A DNA stretch of 64,000 nucleotides from Candidatus Aenigmatarchaeota archaeon (GCA_043799675.1 JAZDNN010000027.1:2589-66588), one strand, 5' to 3'; positions 12,293-63,453 are shown, counted from the first letter of the stretch. The notes: generated by a model from the sequence alone, not told the origin. Numbers and translations: made by a program.

Positions 12293-13258
12293 TTATTCTT
12301 TCTCTTCAGGGTCGCCGAGGCCGTCGGTGTTGACGATGAACACGCATTCGCCTTCCGGTAGGTTGGGCGCGTCTATCATTCGCGCTATCCTGTTCTCCCC
12401 CTTGCTTTTCCTGAGGTAAAGCCTGATTCCGGCGAAGTGGCCCATGACATGCCCTCCTATCGGTGCCGTCGGGTCCCCGAACATCATGTCCGGCCTTGAC
12501 ATCACCTGGTTGGTCATGTAAATTGCCACCCCGTACACGTCTGCCAATCGCTGGAGTGCGTGCAGATGCCTGTTGAGCTTCTGCTGCCTCGATGCCAGCT
12601 CCCCTCTTCCGGTGTAATCCGCCCTGAACAGCGCGGTAACGCTGTCCACCACGATGAGCTTGATGTTCTTCGGCTTGATGAAATCCGCCGCCTTGTCCAC
12701 CAGTACGCACTGGTGGTCTGCGTTGTATGCTCTTGCTACGAGTATGTTTTCCAGCGCCTTCTTCGGGTCAAGTTTGACCGCCTTTGCCATCTGCTCAATC
12801 CTGCTCGGAGAGAACGTGTTCTCGGTGTCTATGAACAGGCACCCGCCAGCGGCTCCGCCCTTATCGACCGGTAGCTGGACTGTGACCGCAAACTCATGGG
12901 CGAGCTGGCTCTTTCCGGAGCCGAATCCCCCGTGGGCCTCTAGCGTCCCTCCGGTCTCAATCCCGCCGCCTATCAGGGCGTTCAGGTTCTTGCTCCGCGT
13001 GGTGATCTTTAACGCTTTCGTCCTTCTCTCAAGCACCTTGGTCGCGCTCTCAAACCCGATGTTCAGCGCATCCCTGGCCGCCTCGATGATCTTGGAAGCT
13101 GTCTGGTCCCCGAGTTCCGCGACCTCGATCAGCTCCTTCGGGCTGGCTGCGGCGACCGACATCAAATCCACGAATCCTGCGGAATCCAGCTTCGCCGCTA
13201 TCTTCTCCCCTACGCCCGGCAGGTCCGCCACCGTTTTGATTTCCTTTTTCTCAGCCAT
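12293..13258 (-). CDS. radA: DNA repair and recombination protein RadA
   Basis: The 321-aa product has an N-terminal HhH (LPGVGEKIAAKL), Walker A GGFGSGKSQ and Walker B IKLIVVDS. The start MAEKKEIK lies 2 nt after the upstream stop. Confidence 0.95.
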   Translation of the reverse strand: MAEKKEIKTVADLPGVGEKIAAKLDSAGFVDLMSVAAASPKELIEVAELGDQTASKIIEAARDALNIGFESATKVLERRTKALKITTRSKNLNALIGGGIETGGTLEAHGGFGSGKSQLAHEFAVTVQLPVDKGGAAGGCLFIDTENTFSPSRIEQMAKAVKLDPKKALENILVARAYNADHQCVLVDKAADFIKPKNIKLIVVDSVTALFRADYTGRGELASRQQKLNRHLHALQRLADVYGVAIYMTNQVMSRPDMMFGDPTAPIGGHVMGHFAGIRLYLRKSKGENRIARMIDAPNLPEGECVFIVNTDGLGDPEEKE

Positions 13259-13260
13259 GG

Positions 13261-13602
13261 TTATAGCCCCTTCGCCGCGGTCTGCATCATGATGGCTGCG
13301 ATGTCCGCCATCACGTCGGCGTCGCAGCCGGTCCAACCGGAACCATAGGGTCGGGTTAATACGAACTCGCCGCCGTCCTTCTTTGGAAATTTCACATTCA
13401 CCTTGCGGCCGGTATATACGAACTGGTCCGGGTCCGCAATTCTTACTACCATACACTCGCCTTCCTTGGCGTATGCATATGACCACGCCTCGCCGTCGGA
13501 TGGATATCTTAATTGATATCCTCTTTTTAGCAAGCCCTGCTCAAACCGGAATGCCAGCCGCTCCCCGACAGGTATTTTTGATTTTTCAGCCATGATTTTC
13601 AC
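13261..13602 (-). CDS. small uncharacterised protein, paralogue of 13909..14277 (rpa-radA operon member 3)
   Basis: The 113-aa product aligns by eye with the 122-aa ORF at RLAFRFEQGLLKRGYQLRYP / KMAYDLEQVLLNGGFERKYP, VVRIADPDQFVY / IVRLANADAFDY and DADVMADIAAIM / EIDLAATIGTVL. Confidence 0.6.
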   Translation of the reverse strand: MKIMAEKSKIPVGERLAFRFEQGLLKRGYQLRYPSDGEAWSYAYAKEGECMVVRIADPDQFVYTGRKVNVKFPKKDGGEFVLTRPYGSGWTGCDADVMADIAAIMMQTAAKGL

Positions 13603-13906
13603 CTGCTTTCGCTCTCCTTTTCAGCACTTCAAGTTCGGCTGATGTCAAGTAACGTCCAATTTCTTGCAGCACGTCAGCGGCGTGCGATGTTATGGACCTG
13701 CCGTCAGGAGAAATCGCCACGGCATCGAACACTTTTATTTCATAATGAATTCGGCCGTCGGCTGCATACGAATCGTGCCTGAATATCTGATCGCCACCGT
13801 AATTCTGGTGCAATTCGGTTCCTAACGGTCGCCAACCGTTCTTCTCGGCTATCTGTTCGAACGTCTTTGCGACATCGAGGTCTATTCTGTCTTCAGGTTT
13901 TCCCAT
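13586..13906 (-). CDS. small uncharacterised protein (rpa-radA operon member 2), possibly a divergent paralogue
   Basis: The 106-aa product shares the N-terminal helix motif (VAKTFEQIAEKNGW) and FRHDS / VKHDS with its neighbours. It overlaps the downstream ORF by 17 nt. Confidence 0.55.
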   Translation of the reverse strand: MGKPEDRIDLDVAKTFEQIAEKNGWRPLGTELHQNYGGDQIFRHDSYAADGRIHYEIKVFDAVAISPDGRSITSHAADVLQEIGRYLTSAELEVLKRRAKAGENHG

Positions 13907-13908
13907 GA

Positions 13909-14277
13909 TTATGGCCTCTTTGATATGCGATGCACCAGAACGGTCCCTATCGTTGCCGCAAGGTCAATTTCGGATGCAATCAAATGCTGGCTATTTCTCT
14001 CCGGTATGACGATATCGACCTTTGGGTTTGATTTCGAAAAACTTATGTGGGCATGGCCGCCTTCGTAGTCGAACGCGTCCGCGTTTGCCAACCTTACTAT
14101 GATAGAGTCATGCTTGACAAATCCGTATGACGTGCGTGCTTTCATGTCGGGACTGGTGGGGTATTTCCGTTCGAACCCGCCGTTGAGAAGCACCTGCTCA
14201 AGATCGTACGCCATCTTCTCACAGTCCTCTTTTTTCGGAAGTGTCAGCGTTCCCGATATATCATTGCTCATTTGCAT
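13909..14277 (-). CDS. small uncharacterised protein (rpa-radA operon member 1)
   Basis: The 122-aa ORF overlaps the rpa stop by 10 nt. It is a paralogue of 13261..13602. Confidence 0.6.
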   Translation of the reverse strand: MQMSNDISGTLTLPKKEDCEKMAYDLEQVLLNGGFERKYPTSPDMKARTSYGFVKHDSIIVRLANADAFDYEGGHAHISFSKSNPKVDIVIPERNSQHLIASEIDLAATIGTVLVHRISKRP

Positions 14278-15293
14278 GCCCCCGCATCATTGGAGGCAAA
14301 AAGATTTAAGAGCCTGTTTGACTCCTCGACAGGATCGACCTCTTTGATGTCCGTCGCAATGAATTCCAGCCGCTCGAACATCCTGTTTTTCCTGACCCTC
14401 CCCATGATAATGAGTTCCTTGCTGACCACGTCCAGGTCCTCGTACAGCTTCCCCTTTTTTGCCGCCATCTCTTCCGCGCTCATCCCCAGCAGCTTCGCAC
14501 CCATGTCCCTGAAGAACACGGCCCGGATGCTTCCCGTACCGTCGTCTATGACCCCGCTCACCACCGCCGTGAGCAGGGGTTTGACCATCCCGTGCTGCGT
14601 GCATTTCCATACGGTGGCCTCAATGCCGGGCTGTATCTCCATCTTCTCCTGCTTCAGCCTGCTCCCGTCCTCGGGACATATCTCATAGAACTGTTCCGTT
14701 TCGAACAGCTGCACCACTGAAGCTCTCACTTCCGCCATCTGCCCTTCCTTGAGTGCCATGACATCCGTCCTTGTCGGCGAGCCGTTCTGGACCTGGCTGA
14801 CATCCGGCAGGTCGCTGTTCTCCAGCAACTTCATGTGCCCGTAGCGCCCAAGCCTTATCTCGACACCTCCGCGTCCGTCATCCTTGCTGTATCCGTCCCC
14901 GATTTCAATTGCCTGCCCGGGCTGCAGTTTTTCCAGGAGGGCGGTCTGCTCGTCCCACAGCGAAAGTCTGCAGCTTGCCGTTCCGTCGCTGATTATGACG
15001 TTCGCCACCTTGCCTTTCTTTCCTTCCCTTTCGAATTCCCGCGGCTCGAACACCCTCACAATCCGTGCCTGCACCTTCAGGCTCCTTATACCGGGAACTA
15101 TGCTCTTCATTTCCACCTTGGTGTTCTGCTTGATTGTGAGGTCCAGTCCCAGTTCTTTGGCGACAATGTATGCCGCCCCCTCGCGGCTGACAAGGTTGCT
15201 CAGTTCCCGTTGCTTGTCCGCTATGCGCTTGTCAACCTCTTCTACGCTCAGCCCGGTTGCAGAAATTATCCGCGGAATGATGTCTTCGGACAT
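14268..15293 (-). CDS. rpa: replication protein A-like single-stranded DNA-binding protein
   Basis: The 341-aa product has an N-terminal helical domain (REGAAYIVAKELG) followed by OB-fold blocks (KVANVIISDGTASCRLSLWDEQ...; VSGVIDDGTGSIRAVFF), as in euryarchaeal RPA41-type proteins. Confidence 0.8.
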   Translation of the reverse strand: MSEDIIPRIISATGLSVEEVDKRIADKQRELSNLVSREGAAYIVAKELGLDLTIKQNTKVEMKSIVPGIRSLKVQARIVRVFEPREFEREGKKGKVANVIISDGTASCRLSLWDEQTALLEKLQPGQAIEIGDGYSKDDGRGGVEIRLGRYGHMKLLENSDLPDVSQVQNGSPTRTDVMALKEGQMAEVRASVVQLFETEQFYEICPEDGSRLKQEKMEIQPGIEATVWKCTQHGMVKPLLTAVVSGVIDDGTGSIRAVFFRDMGAKLLGMSAEEMAAKKGKLYEDLDVVSKELIIMGRVRKNRMFERLEFIATDIKEVDPVEESNRLLNLFASNDAGACK

Positions 15294-15369: not shown

Positions 15370-15573
15370 TCACAGTATTTTTTTCTTTGCCGCGACCACG
15401 TCAGAGGACTCTATCGCCTTCTTTCCGGCCCTCTTTGAGATTGCGTCCGCCTCGCTGGAGATGTCCGTCGTTATTTCCTCAAGCAGCTGCCCGAATTCCT
15501 TCACGGCCCCCTCGTCGGCCTTCATCTTCGGCTTCTCGAGCAGCTTCCTGACCTCGGCGACAGGGTATTCCAT
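15370..15573 (-). CDS. archaeal histone (HMf family histone fold)
   Basis: The 67-aa product follows the histone-fold pattern: PVAEVRKLL...ADEGAVKEFGQLLEEITTDISSEADAISKRAGKKAIESSDVVAAKK. Confidence 0.8.
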   Translation of the reverse strand: MEYPVAEVRKLLEKPKMKADEGAVKEFGQLLEEITTDISSEADAISKRAGKKAIESSDVVAAKKKIL

Positions 15574-15847
15574 ACGTTTTTTCCGCGTTCTTTGTTCTTA
15601 AATTCACCCGCCGGGCCCGTTCTGGAGGCTGCAATGTGAGGGTTCCCATGGATATCCCATAACCTATTTGAGCCAACGTCTATGTTAGCATCATCTGTTG
15701 GTAAACAATAGTGCCCAACCTATAGTAAATAGAATAACTTACCGCAAGGTTGTTACATAAGATATATCTTGAAAACTTTGTATGGGCTTTAAATGCATAT
15801 TTTGCACAAAAGGTGTTGGGTGTGTTGCAGTGAAAGTGAGAGATGAG

Positions 15848-16168
15848 ATGCGCGATGCGGTTGAAGGCATATTCTTGCATTCAAAACCGGTCAGAATGCT
15901 CACGATGCTCAACGGTGACGGGGTCAGATACGCTACCCAGGTGTCAAAAACGGTCGATTGCACCTACTCCCACACCGTAAAGGTGCTCGAGATGTTCAGG
16001 AAGATGAATCTTGTGACCTTCGAGAAGAAAGGAAGGGTGAAGATAATCAAGCTTACAAGCGACGGCGAGGATTTGGCGAATGGTTTCGAGGGCGTGAGGA
16101 AGAAGTTCCACCGCATTTCCACCGGCGTGAAGGAACCGTTGATTGAGAAGCCGGCGAAGGCGAAGTAA
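15848..16168 (+). CDS. winged-helix transcriptional regulator
   Basis: SKPVRMLTMLNGDGVRYATQVSKTVDCTYSHTVKVLEMFRKMNLVTFEKKGRVKIIKLT is an ArsR/MarR-like wHTH. The start could be ATG 15848 or GTG 15830, both downstream of a TTTAAATGCATATTTT box. Confidence 0.6.
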   Translation: MRDAVEGIFLHSKPVRMLTMLNGDGVRYATQVSKTVDCTYSHTVKVLEMFRKMNLVTFEKKGRVKIIKLTSDGEDLANGFEGVRKKFHRISTGVKEPLIEKPAKAK

Positions 16169-16333: not shown

Positions 16334-16681
16334 TTGATTATGAAAGAATTCCTTACCTGGCTCTATGGACGCAGCGCAAGGAATGCGCACATCCGGGGCA
16401 TGGCCGAGAAGACGATAATGCTGTTGAAGAAAGAGCCGATGGAATACCAGCAGCTGTGCCGTGCTCTTGGTATAGGCTTTGACAACTACCAGAAGCCCCG
16501 CAGGACCTTTTATTTCGTCGTTAACCCCCTGAAAGCGGTCCAATTGATCAAGGAAAAGCGGATTAAGGACCAGGTCGACCCCAAGAAGTACCAGACCTTC
16601 TATATGCTGAATCCCGGCGCGTTCCAGGGCTACATGACGCGAGCCGTTGAGGAAGCTGTCACCGGCATGCAGGCCGGCTGA
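16334..16681 (+). CDS. hypothetical protein (115 aa)
   Basis: Its composition is more plausible than that of the overlapping minus-strand ORF. I recognise no family. Confidence 0.4.
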   Translation: MIMKEFLTWLYGRSARNAHIRGMAEKTIMLLKKEPMEYQQLCRALGIGFDNYQKPRRTFYFVVNPLKAVQLIKEKRIKDQVDPKKYQTFYMLNPGAFQGYMTRAVEEAVTGMQAG

Positions 16682-39547: not shown

Positions 39548-39669
39548 GCCCCTGTAGCTCAGCATGGATAGAGCGCCTGACTTCTATCTCTCGATAGAAG
39601 AGACGAGGCTTAGGCCGATGAAAGGAAGAAATCAGGAGGTCGAGGGTCCGAATCCCTTCAGGGGCGCCA
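39548..39669 (+). tRNA. tRNA-Arg(UCU) with a 44-nt intron at the canonical 37/38 position; CCA encoded
   Basis: The acceptor is GCCCCTG/CAGGGGC and the D-arm is GCTC-AGCATGGATA-GAGC. The anticodon arm is CCTGA-CTTCTA[intron]A-TCAGG and the T-arm is GAGGG-TCCGAAT-CCCTT. The discriminator is G. Confidence 0.85.
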
Positions 39670-58731: not shown

Positions 58732-61700
58732 GTGATTCCCTTGGATGCCATAAAGACCAGAACGAGCGAGAACAGCGAACAGCATCTTGAGGCCAGTGCG
58801 GCCAGGCTCGCCGAGACTTCCCCCCAGTTGAAGAAGCCGCTCGTGACCGAGAACCAACTGAAGGTGATAAAGGACAAGTATTTGCGCGACGACCCGTCGG
58901 TGGATATCTGGCTGTGGAGGGTTGCCGAAAACATCGCCCTGTCCGAACTGCTCTATGATTCTCTTGTCCCGCGCGAGGACATCCTTGCCGGAGTGAGCCA
59001 CAGGCTCGAAAAGGTGGAGGCAGGCGATGCGCGGGGGAGCGAGCGCCTGCTGCTTCATGCGGGCATCGACGATCACAACACGCGGCTGGCCAACCACCGC
59101 CGCTTCATTGCGAACCTGTACAAACTGGCAAGGGAACATCCGCACGCGAAGGCCGTGGTGAGGGAGCAGGCCCTGCATTTCTACGAGCTGATGGCCGCAT
59201 GGGACTTTTTGCCGAACTCCCCGTGCCTGATGAATGCGGGGAGGGCCTTGCAGCAGCTGAGCGCCTGTTATGTCCTGCCGATCGAGGACAGCATCGAGGG
59301 CTGGGGCGATACCGTGAAGAACACCATGATAATTCATCAATGTCTGGTTCCGGAGACGTTGGTGATGACCGACGCCGGGCTGGCCGAGCTTGGCACGGTC
59401 ACGGATAATCATCATATCCTGACCCATCTAGGTCCGAGACAAGTGTCCGCCACCTATCGCAACGGCCGCCAGCCAATTTTCAAAGTAACCACCGAGCACG
59501 GCTACGGACTTACCGGCACCGCCGAGCACAAGCTGCTTGTGATTAATGAAACGGGGCTTCCGGCATGGCGACCCATCAGCGAGCTTCGGCCCAGTGATTG
59601 GTTGATGCTGTCTACCGGCGGCTGGCACGGCGGTGTCAGAGAATTGCCGCCGTTCGAATGGAAGCCGAAGGCCGGCAGGAATCGCACGAGTTTCAAGGCC
59701 CGGGACATCAGGCTGCCCACTGAGATGAGCGAAGAGTTTGCAGAACTCATCGGCCTGTATATCGGCGACGGCAGCAACCATCGCGACGGCATCCGTTTTT
59801 CAATCGGTTTCGATGATGCCGATTTGGTCGCGCGCATAACCGAGCTGAGCAAGAAGATGTTCGGAGTGGACCCCGTGGTCTCGAAGAAAAGGGATGGCAG
59901 GTGCTACGAGGTCGCCTTGCTCAGCGTCAAGCTCAAGGCATGGATGGCTGCTATCGGGGTGACCAAGAGTTCGGCCAATGATGCCAGCATACCTGGGATT
60001 GTACGGCGGGCCGATGAGCCGGTTATTTGCGCCTTCCTGCGCGGACTGTTCAGCGCCGATGGCTGCGTGCGGCAGAAGGGATATATAACCTTGGCGACAG
60101 TCTCGCACAAGTTGCTGGACCAGGCGCAGGTTGCCCTGCTACATCTGGGCATCCCTACGCGTAATCTCCGGCTCAGCACAGGGGTGTGGCAACTCAATGT
60201 CTGCAGCCGGCGGGGATTCGAGCTGTTCAGGGAGAAGATAGGTTTCATGGCTGCGCGCAAGCAGGGGCGCTTGCTTGCGGTCGACTCCAGCAAGATTTTC
60301 ACGCGCCGGGAATACCTGCCGCGACAGATTGAGCGGCTGCGCGAGTGGTATGACGGCCTACCCAAGCATGTCAAGGCAGATATTCGGACCAATCATTTGC
60401 TGGAGTTCCAGTATCAGGGCCGCGAGCTGACCGTACAGAAGTTGCAGCTCCTAGCTGATACCTATCCTGCTGAGGCGGTAGACTGGTTCGGGGAACTCCT
60501 GGACGGCCGATTCTTCTATTCCCGAGTCCGTGCTGTGGAGCCAGCCGGAAAGGCGGACGTTATTGACCTAACGGTGCCAGGTATTCATGCCTATCTGGCC
60601 AACGGTTTCATTTCCCACAACAGCGGAGGCGGCACCGGTTTTTCCGCCGGGCGCGTGAGGCATCGGGGCGACACCGTGAAGAGCACCGCCGGGATAGCGA
60701 GCGGCGCCTTGAGTCCGTTCATCCTCATCAATCAGGCGACCGGCCTGGTCAAGCAGGGAGGGACCAGAAGGGGCGCGAACATGGGAATCCTTCCCTGGTG
60801 GCATCCTGACATCGTCGAGTTCATAGATTCCAAGCAAGAGGAGGGCAAGCTCGAGAACTTCAACATCTCGGTCGCCCTTGACGCGCGCTTCATGACGGCC
60901 GCAGAAAACGACGAGGAGGTCGACCTTGTCAGCCCGCGGACGAAGCAACCGGTAAGAAAAATCAGGGCGAAGGACCTGTTCGACAAGATAATCAACAATG
61001 CGTGGAGGACCGGCGACCCGGGCGTGATTTTCATGGACAGGATAAACGACAGCCTGAGCAACCCGACGCCCGCCTTGGGCGAGATAGAGAGCACAAATCC
61101 TTGCGTGGCCGGCGACACGCTGGTGTACACCGGTTCCGGTCTCATGACCGCAGGGGAGCTTGCCGCGAATCCGATTCCGATGTCCCTCGGCATTACGGTC
61201 GATGGCAGGATGAGCCCTGATGCCATGCTGCCGGCTAGCAACGTGTTTTGGACAGGCAGGAAGCCGGTCTACCGTCTGGTAACACAGGAAGGTTATTCGA
61301 TAAGGCTCACCGGAAACCACCGCGTGATGACCGACCGTGGATGGGTTGAGGCCAGGGACCTTATGCCGGGCGACAGGATTCATATTTTATCCAGAAAGGG
61401 CGGATTCGGCACGAAGGGCGACCTCGATACCGGTCGGATAGCTGGACACGAATCGATGGAAACAATATCAGATGACATCATTGCAGCTTCAGAGGATTTC
61501 CAGCGTGGATTCTTGCAAGTGTTATTCACGGATTGCGGACAAATCGATGAAAATGGCATCCATCTCAGAAAGACAAACGTTATACATGAACGCATACAAC
61601 AGATGCTTCTGAATTTTGGTATATATTCAATAGTAAACAAGGATGAGCTCCATATACGGACGGAACAGACTAAAGATTTCCATCGTGAAATCGGATTCTT

Positions 61701-63453
61701 GAAGGATTCCCTGATTGATCGGCTGGAAGTTTGCCTCGCCAACGGAGCGCATGTCACATCACGGGAGCATTTCACGGTCTCATTCATTGAATTGAAATCC
61801 GAAGGCGAGGAAGACGTGTTTGACCTGAGCGAGCCGCGGACCCACAGCTTCGTGGCCAACGGCTTCGTGGTCCATAACTGCGGTGAACAGCCGTTATTGC
61901 CGTTCGAGAGCTGCAACCTCGGAAGCATCAACCTGCGCAACTTCACCTCGGGAAATGATTTCGACTGGCCGCGGCTGCGCTCCGCGATGCGCACCGCCGT
62001 CCGTTTCATGGACAACTGCATCGATGTGAACAACCTTCCGCTCGAGGAGATCGAGAGCATAACCAAGGGCAACCGCAGGCTGGGCATCGGCGTGATGGGC
62101 TGGGCCGAATCGCTTTCAGCTATGGGTATACCGTACGACTCCGAGGCCGCCCTGTCGAAGGCCGAGCAGACCGCGAAGTTCCTGGAAGACGTAGCTCTTG
62201 CAGCCAGCGAGGAGCTCGCCGCTGAGCGCGGTGTTTTCCCGAACTTTGTCGGCTCGATGTATGATCCTTCAAGCCCCTATCGCAAGGATTGGGCGGTCGG
62301 CAGGCCAAGAAATTGTGCCCGTACCACCATCGCCCCGACCGGGACCATAGCCATCACCGCCGGATTGCAGGGCGGCGGGATAGAGCCGTTCTTCGCGCTC
62401 GTTTATACGCGCTACAACGCAAAGGCGCTGGACGCCCTCAAGAAGGGCGAGAAGCCCGAGGAAGGCGACGTGTTCTATGAGGTCAACCCCGTGTTCAGGA
62501 AGGTCGCCGATTCAAATGCGTTCTGGGGGATGTCCGAGGCCGATTTGTGGAAAAGGATAGTGGAGAACCACGGCTCCGTCCGCGGGATCGAAGAGATACC
62601 GGAAGCAATCCAGCGTGCGTTCGCGACCGCACATGATATCGGCGTCCCGTGGCACGTGCGCATGCAGGCGGCCTGGCAGAAGTTCACCGACAACGCCGTG
62701 AGCAAGACCATCAACATGCCGAACAGCGCGACGCCCGAGGAAGTGCGCGCCACCTACCTGCTTGCTTGGAAGACCGGCTGCAAGGGGATTACCGTTTACA
62801 GGGACGGCTGCAAGTCGCAGCAGGTCCTCAATCTGTCCGCAAAGAAGCTCGAACCGAAAATAGAAATGATGGAGCCGCAGGTAAGGCCCCGCCCCCGCCC
62901 GAAGATGATGGAAGGGAAGACCCAGGAGGTAAGGACCGGCTGCGGCGACATGTACATAACTGTCAATCGCGATGAGAAGGGTCCGTTCGAACTGTTTGCG
63001 GCCATAGGCAAGAGCGGGGGCTGTATCTCAAGTTATTCCGAAGCCGTGGCAAGGCTGGTGAGCCTTGCTCTTCGCAGCGGCGTCGACCCGAAGCAGGTGG
63101 TCAAGCAGCTCAAAGGCATACGGTGCAGCCGGCCGGTGTTCGATACCGGAGGGGTCACCTACAGCTGCGCTGATTGCATCGCCAAGGCGTTCGAGAAGGT
63201 GATAGCCGGCGACACCAGCCAGCAGGCCCATCTTGCCGTGTTTGCCGAGGAGGCGATACCGCAGCATAAGGAGGAGAACGGAAAGAACATGACTCTGGAC
63301 GGGCGGGCAATAACCCCAGTGCAGGAACCGAACCAGATGGAGCAGCTCATCAAGGCCGGCGCGAGGCCTGAGTGCCCCGAGTGCGGCGGCCCCGTCAATT
63401 TCGTTGAAGGCTGTGTCACTTGCTCCGCCTGCGGTTACAGCGCCTGCGGGTAA
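58732..63453 (+). CDS. nrdJ: class II (adenosylcobalamin-dependent) ribonucleotide reductase NrdJ, interrupted by two inteins
   Basis: The N-terminal block is TENQLKVIKDKYL. The GGGTGFS and NPCGEQPL active-site blocks are each split by an intein. The C-terminal zinc ribbon is CPECGG...CVTCSACG. The extein is ~887 aa. The start (GTG 58732) is uncertain. Confidence 0.9.
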   Translation: MIPLDAIKTRTSENSEQHLEASAARLAETSPQLKKPLVTENQLKVIKDKYLRDDPSVDIWLWRVAENIALSELLYDSLVPREDILAGVSHRLEKVEAGDARGSERLLLHAGIDDHNTRLANHRRFIANLYKLAREHPHAKAVVREQALHFYELMAAWDFLPNSPCLMNAGRALQQLSACYVLPIEDSIEGWGDTVKNTMIIHQCLVPETLVMTDAGLAELGTVTDNHHILTHLGPRQVSATYRNGRQPIFKVTTEHGYGLTGTAEHKLLVINETGLPAWRPISELRPSDWLMLSTGGWHGGVRELPPFEWKPKAGRNRTSFKARDIRLPTEMSEEFAELIGLYIGDGSNHRDGIRFSIGFDDADLVARITELSKKMFGVDPVVSKKRDGRCYEVALLSVKLKAWMAAIGVTKSSANDASIPGIVRRADEPVICAFLRGLFSADGCVRQKGYITLATVSHKLLDQAQVALLHLGIPTRNLRLSTGVWQLNVCSRRGFELFREKIGFMAARKQGRLLAVDSSKIFTRREYLPRQIERLREWYDGLPKHVKADIRTNHLLEFQYQGRELTVQKLQLLADTYPAEAVDWFGELLDGRFFYSRVRAVEPAGKADVIDLTVPGIHAYLANGFISHNSGGGTGFSAGRVRHRGDTVKSTAGIASGALSPFILINQATGLVKQGGTRRGANMGILPWWHPDIVEFIDSKQEEGKLENFNISVALDARFMTAAENDEEVDLVSPRTKQPVRKIRAKDLFDKIINNAWRTGDPGVIFMDRINDSLSNPTPALGEIESTNPCVAGDTLVYTGSGLMTAGELAANPIPMSLGITVDGRMSPDAMLPASNVFWTGRKPVYRLVTQEGYSIRLTGNHRVMTDRGWVEARDLMPGDRIHILSRKGGFGTKGDLDTGRIAGHESMETISDDIIAASEDFQRGFLQVLFTDCGQIDENGIHLRKTNVIHERIQQMLLNFGIYSIVNKDELHIRTEQTKDFHREIGFLKDSLIDRLEVCLANGAHVTSREHFTVSFIELKSEGEEDVFDLSEPRTHSFVANGFVVHNCGEQPLLPFESCNLGSINLRNFTSGNDFDWPRLRSAMRTAVRFMDNCIDVNNLPLEEIESITKGNRRLGIGVMGWAESLSAMGIPYDSEAALSKAEQTAKFLEDVALAASEELAAERGVFPNFVGSMYDPSSPYRKDWAVGRPRNCARTTIAPTGTIAITAGLQGGGIEPFFALVYTRYNAKALDALKKGEKPEEGDVFYEVNPVFRKVADSNAFWGMSEADLWKRIVENHGSVRGIEEIPEAIQRAFATAHDIGVPWHVRMQAAWQKFTDNAVSKTINMPNSATPEEVRATYLLAWKTGCKGITVYRDGCKSQQVLNLSAKKLEPKIEMMEPQVRPRPRPKMMEGKTQEVRTGCGDMYITVNRDEKGPFELFAAIGKSGGCISSYSEAVARLVSLALRSGVDPKQVVKQLKGIRCSRPVFDTGGVTYSCADCIAKAFEKVIAGDTSQQAHLAVFAEEAIPQHKEENGKNMTLDGRAITPVQEPNQMEQLIKAGARPECPECGGPVNFVEGCVTCSACGYSACG
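59341..60621 (+). mobile_element. intein 1 (427 aa) with a LAGLIDADG homing-endonuclease domain
   Basis: It starts with Cys (CLVPETLV) immediately after ...TMIIHQ and ends ...NGFISHN, followed by the +1 Ser of SGGGTG. The internal LAGLIDADG motifs are LIGLYIGDGSN and LRGLFSADGCV. Confidence 0.85.
61102..61878 (+). mobile_element. intein 2 (259 aa) with a reduced or degenerate endonuclease region
   Basis: It starts CVAGDTLV after ...IESTNP and ends ...NGFVVHN, followed by the +1 Cys of CGEQPL. I see only one LAGLIDADG-like remnant (FLQVLFTDCGQI). Confidence 0.8.

Follow-up and report, generated by a model that had tools for sequence, protein, structure and literature searches.

Between rpa and radA, the genes for the single-stranded DNA (ssDNA)-binding protein RPA and the recombinase RadA, a 64,000-nucleotide stretch of archaeal DNA (GCA_043799675.1, JAZDNN010000027.1:2589-66588, from Candidatus Aenigmatarchaeota archaeon; the whole stretch is here termed the window) carries three small open reading frames (ORFs), cassettes A, B and C. 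These form one clade-restricted orphan family of soluble proteins of ~100-130 amino acids (aa), which is undescribed and without detectable relative in sequence or structure, and the array in which they lie is a dynamic cassette locus with quick gain, loss and lateral exchange, where cassettes are swappable and their number and type vary from strain to strain. The reading favoured here, though tentatively, is that the cassettes encode small, exchangeable partner proteins for RPA or RadA, which would be made in step with them.

The cassette family and its predicted fold

The gene order on the minus strand is histone, then rpa, A, B, C and radA joined by overlaps or 2-nt gaps. An earlier note on this DNA had described five same-strand ORFs from rpa to radA, and both their coordinates and their junctions are exactly as it gave them: when each ORF is taken at its longest, there is a 10-nt overlap, a 2-nt gap, a 17-nt overlap and a 2-nt gap, in order from rpa to radA. 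Cassette A, of the A/C subgroup, has orthologues in related strains and spans 13909..14271 (120 aa, ATG at 14271) or 13909..14277 (122 aa, ATG at 14277); cassette B (106 aa, 13586..13906), of the B/X subgroup, has the orthologues P0005, P0006 and P0015; and cassette C, again of the A/C subgroup, spans 13261..13593 (110 aa, ATG at 13593) or 13261..13602 (113 aa, GTG at 13602) and has an orthologue in the related locus L087 (loci are given by number, L001-L080 being a survey set of 80 radA loci from GTDB genomes). The shorter starts are preferred for A and C because the gene calls of homologues use them. Judged in this way, the likelier start of A is ATG 14271 (MSNDI), which gives a 4-nt ATGA overlap with rpa, and the likelier start of C is ATG 13593 (MAEKS), which gives an 8-nt ATGGCTGA overlap with the stop of B. 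Every start is preceded, 7-13 nt upstream, by a Shine-Dalgarno-like GGTGA, GAGG or GGGG motif, and in L001, L085, L088, L090 and L098 the final cassette of the array extends over the start of radA.

Ratios of nonsynonymous to synonymous substitution (dN/dS, by the Nei-Gojobori method against orthologues in related strains) are 0.22 for A, 0.21-0.32 for B, 0.15-0.34 for C, 0.17 for the related cassette type D and 0.50 for type E, compared with 0.04-0.20 for rpa and radA. Since these values lie well under 1, the cassettes are translated genes under purifying but relaxed selection. Orthologues of A are 94-95% identical in L084, L089, L101 and L103, the orthologue of C in L087 is 88% identical with a dN/dS of 0.15, and at least 10 arrays, which come from at least 12 samples, have intact reading frames.

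The paralogy of A and C, which had earlier been called by eye, is borne out by BLASTP (E=7e-13, 25% identity over 102 residues). Cassette B shows no detectable pairwise similarity to A or C (E=0.44 and 1.1, respectively) and is connected to them through intermediates. It matches X-type cassettes at 1e-11. In the closest GTDB genome (L001) a single ORF, P0004, separates rpa from radA, and it is similar to all three cassettes, with E values of 2e-5 for A, 1e-3 for C and 3e-3 for B. When 17 members were compared all against all, many weak matches connected the groups A/C, B/X, D and E. A profile built without any B or X member finds X cassettes at 2.7e-5 to 2e-3 among 10,173 ORFs, and a profile built from B and X members only finds D cassettes at 7e-4 to 1e-2, these being its best non-self matches among the same ORFs. 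Taken together, the transitive matches, this non-circular profile test and a predicted topology that B shares with C place B in the family. The earlier note had also related the middle ORF to its neighbours, in part through a shared (R/K)HDS block; the relationship stands on the transitive profile evidence, and the block, which was rejected as a shared feature of A and B because it falls in different alignment columns in the two, is probably coincidental.

Members of the family share an N-terminal amphipathic helix motif, A-x-x-F-E-x-x-L-x-x-x-G-[W/Y/F], in which the Glu and the Gly are invariant, together with a conserved Tyr in the sheet and a conserved C-terminal helix. No long predicted hydrophobic segment and no enzyme motif was found in the cassette proteins. 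Their isoelectric points range from 5.0 to 9.4 (6.5, 5.7 and 8.5 for A, B and C of the window) and their net charges from -7 to +5.5. The database sources that name family members do so only as 'hypothetical protein'.

AlphaFold2 monomer models were built on the family alignment and reached only moderate confidence (pLDDT 77 and 63). The model of C (pLDDT 76.8, pTM 0.73) has a helix at residues 9-23, five short strands and a helix at residues 89-109; that of B (pLDDT 63.4, pTM 0.56) likewise has a helix, five strands and a helix, the C-terminal helix covering residues 74-104. The predicted architecture is thus an N-terminal helix, a four- to five-stranded antiparallel beta meander and a C-terminal helix. 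Within the limits of these moderate-confidence models, the family has neither an OB fold nor a RecA fold. This agrees with the earlier view that the ORFs are neither RPA14/RPA32-type OB-fold subunits nor RadA paralogues, on which profiles, hhalign and the AlphaFold2/Foldseek comparisons concur. Profiles of Pfam, NCBIfam, PHROGs and PADLOC gave no match even at E<=10 or E<=1, Pfam OB or RPA families gave none for 11 members even at E<=10, and PDB sequences gave none (best E=0.08). When the model of C was compared by Foldseek with PDB and BFVD, and that of B with PDB, no significant neighbour was found (best E values 0.23, 0.037 and 1.1, every TM <=0.44; the BFVD best, at E=0.037, has a TM of 0.32), and no OB-fold protein was among the matches of either model. 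The weak matches include frataxin/CyaY-like and FP-domain-like alpha/beta sandwiches (4hs5 at TM 0.38; also 4l9h, 4ouh and 2vt8), which have the same secondary-structure order of helix, antiparallel sheet and helix; these are not significant (E>=0.29, TM<0.4) and come with no sequence similarity, and membership of those families is not claimed.

Several specific origins were also considered and rejected. Descent from the RPA OB fold has an hhalign probability of 0.2% when the family is compared with the local RPA profile, and descent from the RadA N-terminal domain has one of 0.07% against the RadA profile; radA and the cassettes share no more than a Shine-Dalgarno motif, a start codon and four initial codons (MAEK). 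A RecA-fold ATPase core was not found, with no Rad51, RecA, KaiC or AAA Pfam match, no GxxxxGK[ST] and a length of only 100-130 aa. Mimicry of BRC/FxxA peptides was dismissed because the motif is F-E-x-x, with G, I, V, A, E, Q or K at +3 depending on the member, and it sits in a predicted helix. DinI-like DNA mimicry was likewise set aside, as the proteins are not strongly acidic and have no sequence match; with isoelectric points in the range given above, they are not acidic DNA mimics. Among viral resources, PHROGs gave a best E of 0.11, for one of 11 members, PADLOC gave no match, and a scan of IMG/VR with P0005 gave none. The earlier note had asked whether profile searches would place the ORFs in a well-known unrelated family such as toxin-antitoxin or phage proteins, and no such family was matched.

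Distribution and turnover of the cassettes

Homologues were sought among 5.8 billion proteins by word-indexed searches and among 1.84 billion representatives by an exhaustive HMMER scan, which together yielded ~14 true family members. P0009, P0010, P0012, P0013, P0016 and P0017 were rejected, all being long and matching in 4-9 separate stretches; the two that were read, P0009 and P0013, are multi-repeat adhesin-like proteins. A tblastn search of the 80 surveyed radA loci with A, B and C gave no matches, the L001 copy being seen only from the ORF in the gap, and a scan of GTDB genomes with C gave no match. Searched with the family hidden Markov model (HMM), neither the 64-kb window nor ~950 kb from the loci of relatives gave a further match.

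All members whose context was recovered lie between rpa and radA, in one narrow DPANN clade and in at least 10 independent arrays, every one of which sits 3' of rpa on the same strand. Linkage to these two genes had been set as a test beforehand, and homologues adjoin rpa and radA in every context recovered. The composition of the array differs among relatives: it is A-B-C in the window, X-A in L084, L089, L101 and L103, B-C followed by the contig end in L087, X' only in L090, B-C'-D in L081 and L082, B-E in L083 and L085, an unrelated 58-aa ORF and then E-D in L088, and D only in L001 and L098. There is accordingly one copy per array in L001, L098 and L090, two in L085 and L089/L101, and three in the window, L081 and L088, the count for L088 including the unrelated 58-aa ORF. 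At least one cassette is present in every clade member recovered, from L001/L088 (RPA ~61% identical) to L089 (98-99%), and outgroups with RPA at <=52% identity have none. The contig end of L086 (MAEKKVGPYV) was considered as an extra cassette and rejected, since its sister contig L098 has radA there.

The closest comparison is between the window and L089, where the flanking DNA is 98% identical on the rpa side and 96% on the radA side and the RPA and RadA proteins are 98-99% identical. By blastn, a 338-nt block of L089 (4155-4492), which is cassette X, is missing from the window, and the window has an extra block of 654 nt, which is B and C. The 3' end of rpa in the window (14268..14291, minus strand) bears the trace of X: its last six codons, DAGACK, and the sequence up to the start of A are identical to the 3' end of X. 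The DAGACK end is identical to the end of cassette X in L084, L089 and L101, whose own RPA ends NTGV. From this identity it follows that the rpa 3' end is a recombination chimera, and that X was deleted or replaced in the lineage of the window.

Short repeats mark the junctions. One, ATGGCTGAAAAA (13582..13593, minus strand), lies at the C start and extends over the B stop (..CAT GGC TGA), and the other, ATGGCTGAGAAA (13247..13258, minus strand), lies at the start of radA. The pattern ATGGCTGARAAA occurs twice in the 64 kb, at the starts of C and radA, with 0.02 occurrences expected, and the same start junction is seen in L081, L085, L086, L088 and L001. The initiation region of radA itself, GGTGAAA-N3-4-ATGGCTGA(G/A)AAA (encoding MAEK), also starts C in the window, D in L081 and L086 and E in L088, and GTG variants of it start E in L085 and C' in L081. 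The 8-nt ATGGCTGA doubles as the coding sequence for the xG-stop of the gene before it. These repeats would be natural sites for unequal crossing-over, by which whole cassettes may be added or removed while still coupled.

The rpa-radA pair and its surroundings

The identities that had been given to rpa and radA are confirmed by Pfam and NCBIfam profiles. The rpa gene (14268..15293, minus strand, 341 aa) encodes an RPA41/RPA1-like ssDNA-binding protein with an OB fold (PF01336, 3.6e-11) and a zinc-finger C-terminal domain like DNA-binding domain C (DBD-C; Rep_fac-A_C, PF08646, 1.4e-7), and it resembles RPA41-type proteins in NCBIfam (NF006255, 4e-42, under the equivalog cutoff). The radA gene (12293..13258, minus strand, 321 aa) encodes an archaeal recombinase of the RecA/Rad51 family (Rad51, PF08423, 1.4e-90; TIGR02236, 431 bits), whose identity is unambiguous (NF003301, 448 bits against a cutoff of 259). 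The closest match of RadA, at 79%, is to an uncultured archaeon (L001), and the next, at ~68%, are to Aenigmatarchaeota metagenome-assembled genomes; this placement of RadA puts the organism, which is uncultivated, in the DPANN archaea. As a separate observation, the radA of a related DPANN archaeon (L092 4597-7173, Ga0209541_10009389) is a single ORF of 858 aa, with an insert of ~470 aa after GGHIMGHF, in the ATPase core, which is bounded by C...VHN|S and is intein-like.

In 58 of the 80 surveyed radA loci, radA is preceded by a same-strand rpa, with a gap of ~0 in most, and this adjacency spans Aenigmatarchaeota, Micrarchaeota, Iainarchaeota and Woesearchaeota and, more loosely, Methanobacteriales. 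Adjacency without an insert is the rule in DPANN archaea. Because rpa directly abuts radA in most relatives, this adjacency is ancestral as well as widespread, and the small ORFs are an insertion into the pair. Other DPANN lineages occasionally hold unrelated genes at the same junction: a His_Phos_1 phosphatase in L003 (1261-1806, 2.8e-36), a YdjM membrane protein and an 87-aa orphan in L094 (1165-1614, YdjM 3.2e-27, and 1852-2115), an orphan ORF that is possibly a winged-helix protein in L051 (5657-5995), and a 149-aa orphan in L064 (5264-5713). Haloarchaeal rpa operons contain a phosphoesterase, which may be compared with the phosphatase of L003.

Upstream of rpa, and first in the histone-rpa-...-radA cluster, lies a gene for an archaeal histone-fold protein (15370..15573, minus strand, 67 aa; PF00808, CBFD_NFYB_HMF, E=4e-4), which is found upstream of rpa also in L001, L081, L088 and L101. 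Two small divergent genes beyond it, 15782-16168 and 16334-16681 (both plus strand), have weak winged-helix matches and are in conserved synteny in L001, L088 and L101; they might regulate the histone-rpa-radA cluster locally. Elsewhere in the window there are a 119-nt transfer RNA (tRNA; 39548-39666, plus strand, Rfam 53.9 bits), whose length could accommodate an intron and which was seen with Rfam where ARAGORN found no tRNA window-wide, and a very long ORF of 1573 aa near the window end (58732-63453, plus strand).

Readings of the array

Archaeal RPA1-like genes often precede small partner genes, as described for RPA32 and RPA14 in Thermococcales and for COG3390/Rpap in Halobacteriales and Methanosarcinales (PMC2643942, PMC3376784), and RPA subunits assemble via a bundle of C-terminal helices (PMC8329085). 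In kind, the present arrangement is a variant of this known theme, small partner genes beside archaeal rpa. The array is probably transcribed with rpa and radA and would be translationally coupled via the ATGA and ATGGCTGA start/stop overlaps, so that production of its proteins would keep pace with that of RPA and RadA. The position of the cassettes and this coupling lead us to infer a role in ssDNA handling or recombination, in which the cassette proteins may be interchangeable adaptors or regulators of RPA or RadA. They might act when ssDNA coated with RPA is passed on to the RadA filament, and could dock by means of the conserved N-terminal helix or by bundling of their C-terminal helix with that of the DBD-C-like domain of RPA; the modelled terminal helices flanking a small sheet would suit a protein-protein adaptor. 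At least one copy is always kept, and extra copies arise, are lost and pass between strains, presumably by recombination at the short junction repeats, copies of the radA translation-initiation region, and in the highly conserved flanks.

Several observations weigh against such a partnership. Strains whose flanks are 96-98% identical to those of the window have X-A, not A-B-C, no subtype constantly adjoins rpa or radA, and cassette type and number are too variable for a core factor. The cassettes also diverge far faster than the highly conserved proteins they would bind, and an FxxA RadA-binding motif is not conserved across members. They have, moreover, been laterally exchanged, with a history at odds with that of their flanks. 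Cassette B is 90% identical in DNA between the window and L085, where the flanks are 77-82% identical, and the corresponding synonymous divergence (dS) is 0.32 for B, 1.48 for rpa and 1.01 for radA (Fisher p=5e-8 against rpa and 6e-6 against radA); between the window and L087 the discordance is reversed, with a dS of 1.53 for B and 0.63 for rpa (Fisher p=0.0016). Composition is atypical as well, in that GC content at third codon positions (GC3) is 0.49-0.61 in the cassettes, compared with 0.73 in rpa and 0.76 in radA, and codon adaptation is low, the coding frame of C scoring no better than the reverse strand. Overall GC shows a trough over the cassettes of the window (0.47-0.51, against 0.56-0.61 in rpa and radA). 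A similar GC3 deficit is seen in L081, L087 and L089; in the low-GC relative L001, cassette GC3 is 0.36, near that of the flanks. Finally, since unrelated genes occupy the same junction in other lineages, position alone is weak evidence.

Much of this would be expected if the cassettes were passengers or conflict genes, which is the main rival reading and a real, if somewhat doubtful, possibility. They would then belong to a fast-evolving accessory family (of a virus, mobile-element, host-symbiont conflict or immunity type, for example) that sits at a permissive, strongly expressed junction, spreads via homologous recombination in the flanks and has no part in the biochemistry of RPA or RadA. 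Strain-level presence and absence with replacement of cassettes, the incongruent history of B, a GC3 ~0.15-0.35 under that of the flanks in high-GC genomes, relaxed constraint (dN/dS up to 0.5), the unrelated inserts at the same junction in other DPANN lineages and the lack of similarity to any DNA-metabolism family all point that way, and the turnover, lateral exchange, low GC3 and unrelated inserts fit passengers better than they fit partners of RPA or RadA. On the other hand, no member matches a defence model (PADLOC), a phage family (PHROGs), a viral contig or a viral structure, the family is at no other locus in any database searched, and no clade member is without at least one copy. The cassettes have also captured the translation-initiation region of radA and overlap its start codon, so that translation of radA is tied to them. 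Passengers account less well for an exclusive location, a copy number that never falls to zero and a captured radA start. It is far less probable that the operon has taken up a toxin-antitoxin or comparable addiction module, the most improbable of the explanations weighed here: the genes are indeed small, tandem, overlapping and strain-variable, but they are mutually paralogous and not two different partner families, single-copy arrays occur in L001, L090 and L098, and there is no toxin or antitoxin match in Pfam, NCBIfam or PADLOC and no DNA-binding antitoxin-type domain. Hardly more probable is that the ORFs are non-functional or decaying, or young de novo frames open by chance in an operon spacer. 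Their orphan status, the weak codon adaptation (C no better than its reverse strand) and the rapid turnover would suit such frames; dN/dS is nevertheless well below 1 in six independent orthologue comparisons, frames are intact in the at least 10 arrays from at least 12 samples noted above, and subgroups with saturated synonymous sites still have the N-terminal helix motif and the predicted topology in common.

Highly diverged RPA small subunits, like RPA14, RPA32 or Rpap, which would complete a multi-subunit RPA via a C-terminal helix bundle, are an unlikely explanation, although the place just 3' of an RPA41/RPA1-like gene matches the RPA41-RPA14-RPA32 and Rpa-Rpap operons (PMC2643942, PMC3376784), and 100-130 aa with about five beta strands and a C-terminal helix resemble the layout of RPA14 and the RPA32 core (PMC8329085). 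The absence of a Pfam OB/RPA match (11 members, E<=10), the hhalign probability of 0.2% and the lack of an OB protein in Foldseek speak against it, as do the predicted strands, which are hairpin-linked meanders with no helix between beta3 and beta4. A copy number that varies and cassettes that are laterally exchanged argue against fixed stoichiometry, and most DPANN relatives with the same RPA have no gene at this position. The cassettes are like the RPA14/RPA32 genes of Thermococcales and COG3390/Rpap in that they encode small proteins, with a beta-rich core and then a C-terminal helix, directly 3' of a gene for an RPA41/RPA1-like protein whose C-terminal domain is of the zinc-finger DBD-C-like type, and with which they are probably co-expressed. 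They differ in that they lack an OB-fold signal in sequence, profile and model, lack a winged-helix domain, are confined to one small clade in one to three copies, are laterally exchanged and are equally coupled to radA. With RadB, aRadC, Rad55-type paralogues, BRC/FxxA peptides, DinI and RecX, the likeness is of position and size only, as the cassettes have no RecA fold, Walker motifs, conserved FxxA, DinI acidity or any sequence or structure match.

The earlier note had proposed that the three ORFs are subunits of one heteromeric mediator or regulator. This part of its account does not fit the one- and two-copy arrays of sister genomes; given the variable copies, X-A as against A-B-C, the lateral exchange, the atypical composition and the narrow clade, an obligate heterotrimeric mediator is not supported. 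Bacterial poly-immunity or orphan-immunity arrays and defence hot spots, which are likewise hypervariable and lie between conserved genes, resemble the cassettes in their tandem diverged paralogues, strain-level presence and absence, exchange via flanks and atypical composition. Unlike these, the cassettes lie inside a core DNA-metabolism operon, are translationally coupled and occur at one locus only. They are accompanied by no toxin or defence gene, and known immunity or defence families gave no match. A bolder version of the partner reading, which is improbable, if slightly less so than the small-subunit explanation, is that the array proteins have an unseen fold, bind RPA or RadA directly and set strain-specific recombination, as an arms-race module in the core recombination machinery; such a module might, for example, keep inhibitors encoded by viruses from disturbing the transfer from RPA to RadA, or select the incoming DNA that recombines.

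Little is known of recombination mediators in archaea, and the repair toolkits of DPANN archaea are minimal. To our knowledge, and short of an exhaustive literature search, cassette-like hypervariability inside a core recombination operon has no described precedent. If the cassettes act on RPA or RadA, they would represent a new class of accessory factor that is neither OB nor RecA in fold, and their cassette-like turnover would mean that even a core recombination operon can host fast-evolving, exchangeable modulators. If they are passengers, the locus would be a clean natural example of an essential operon serving as both expression platform and recombination anchor for accessory genes. Either way, the family is unannotated and its members are small enough for direct biochemistry with their cognate RPA and RadA.

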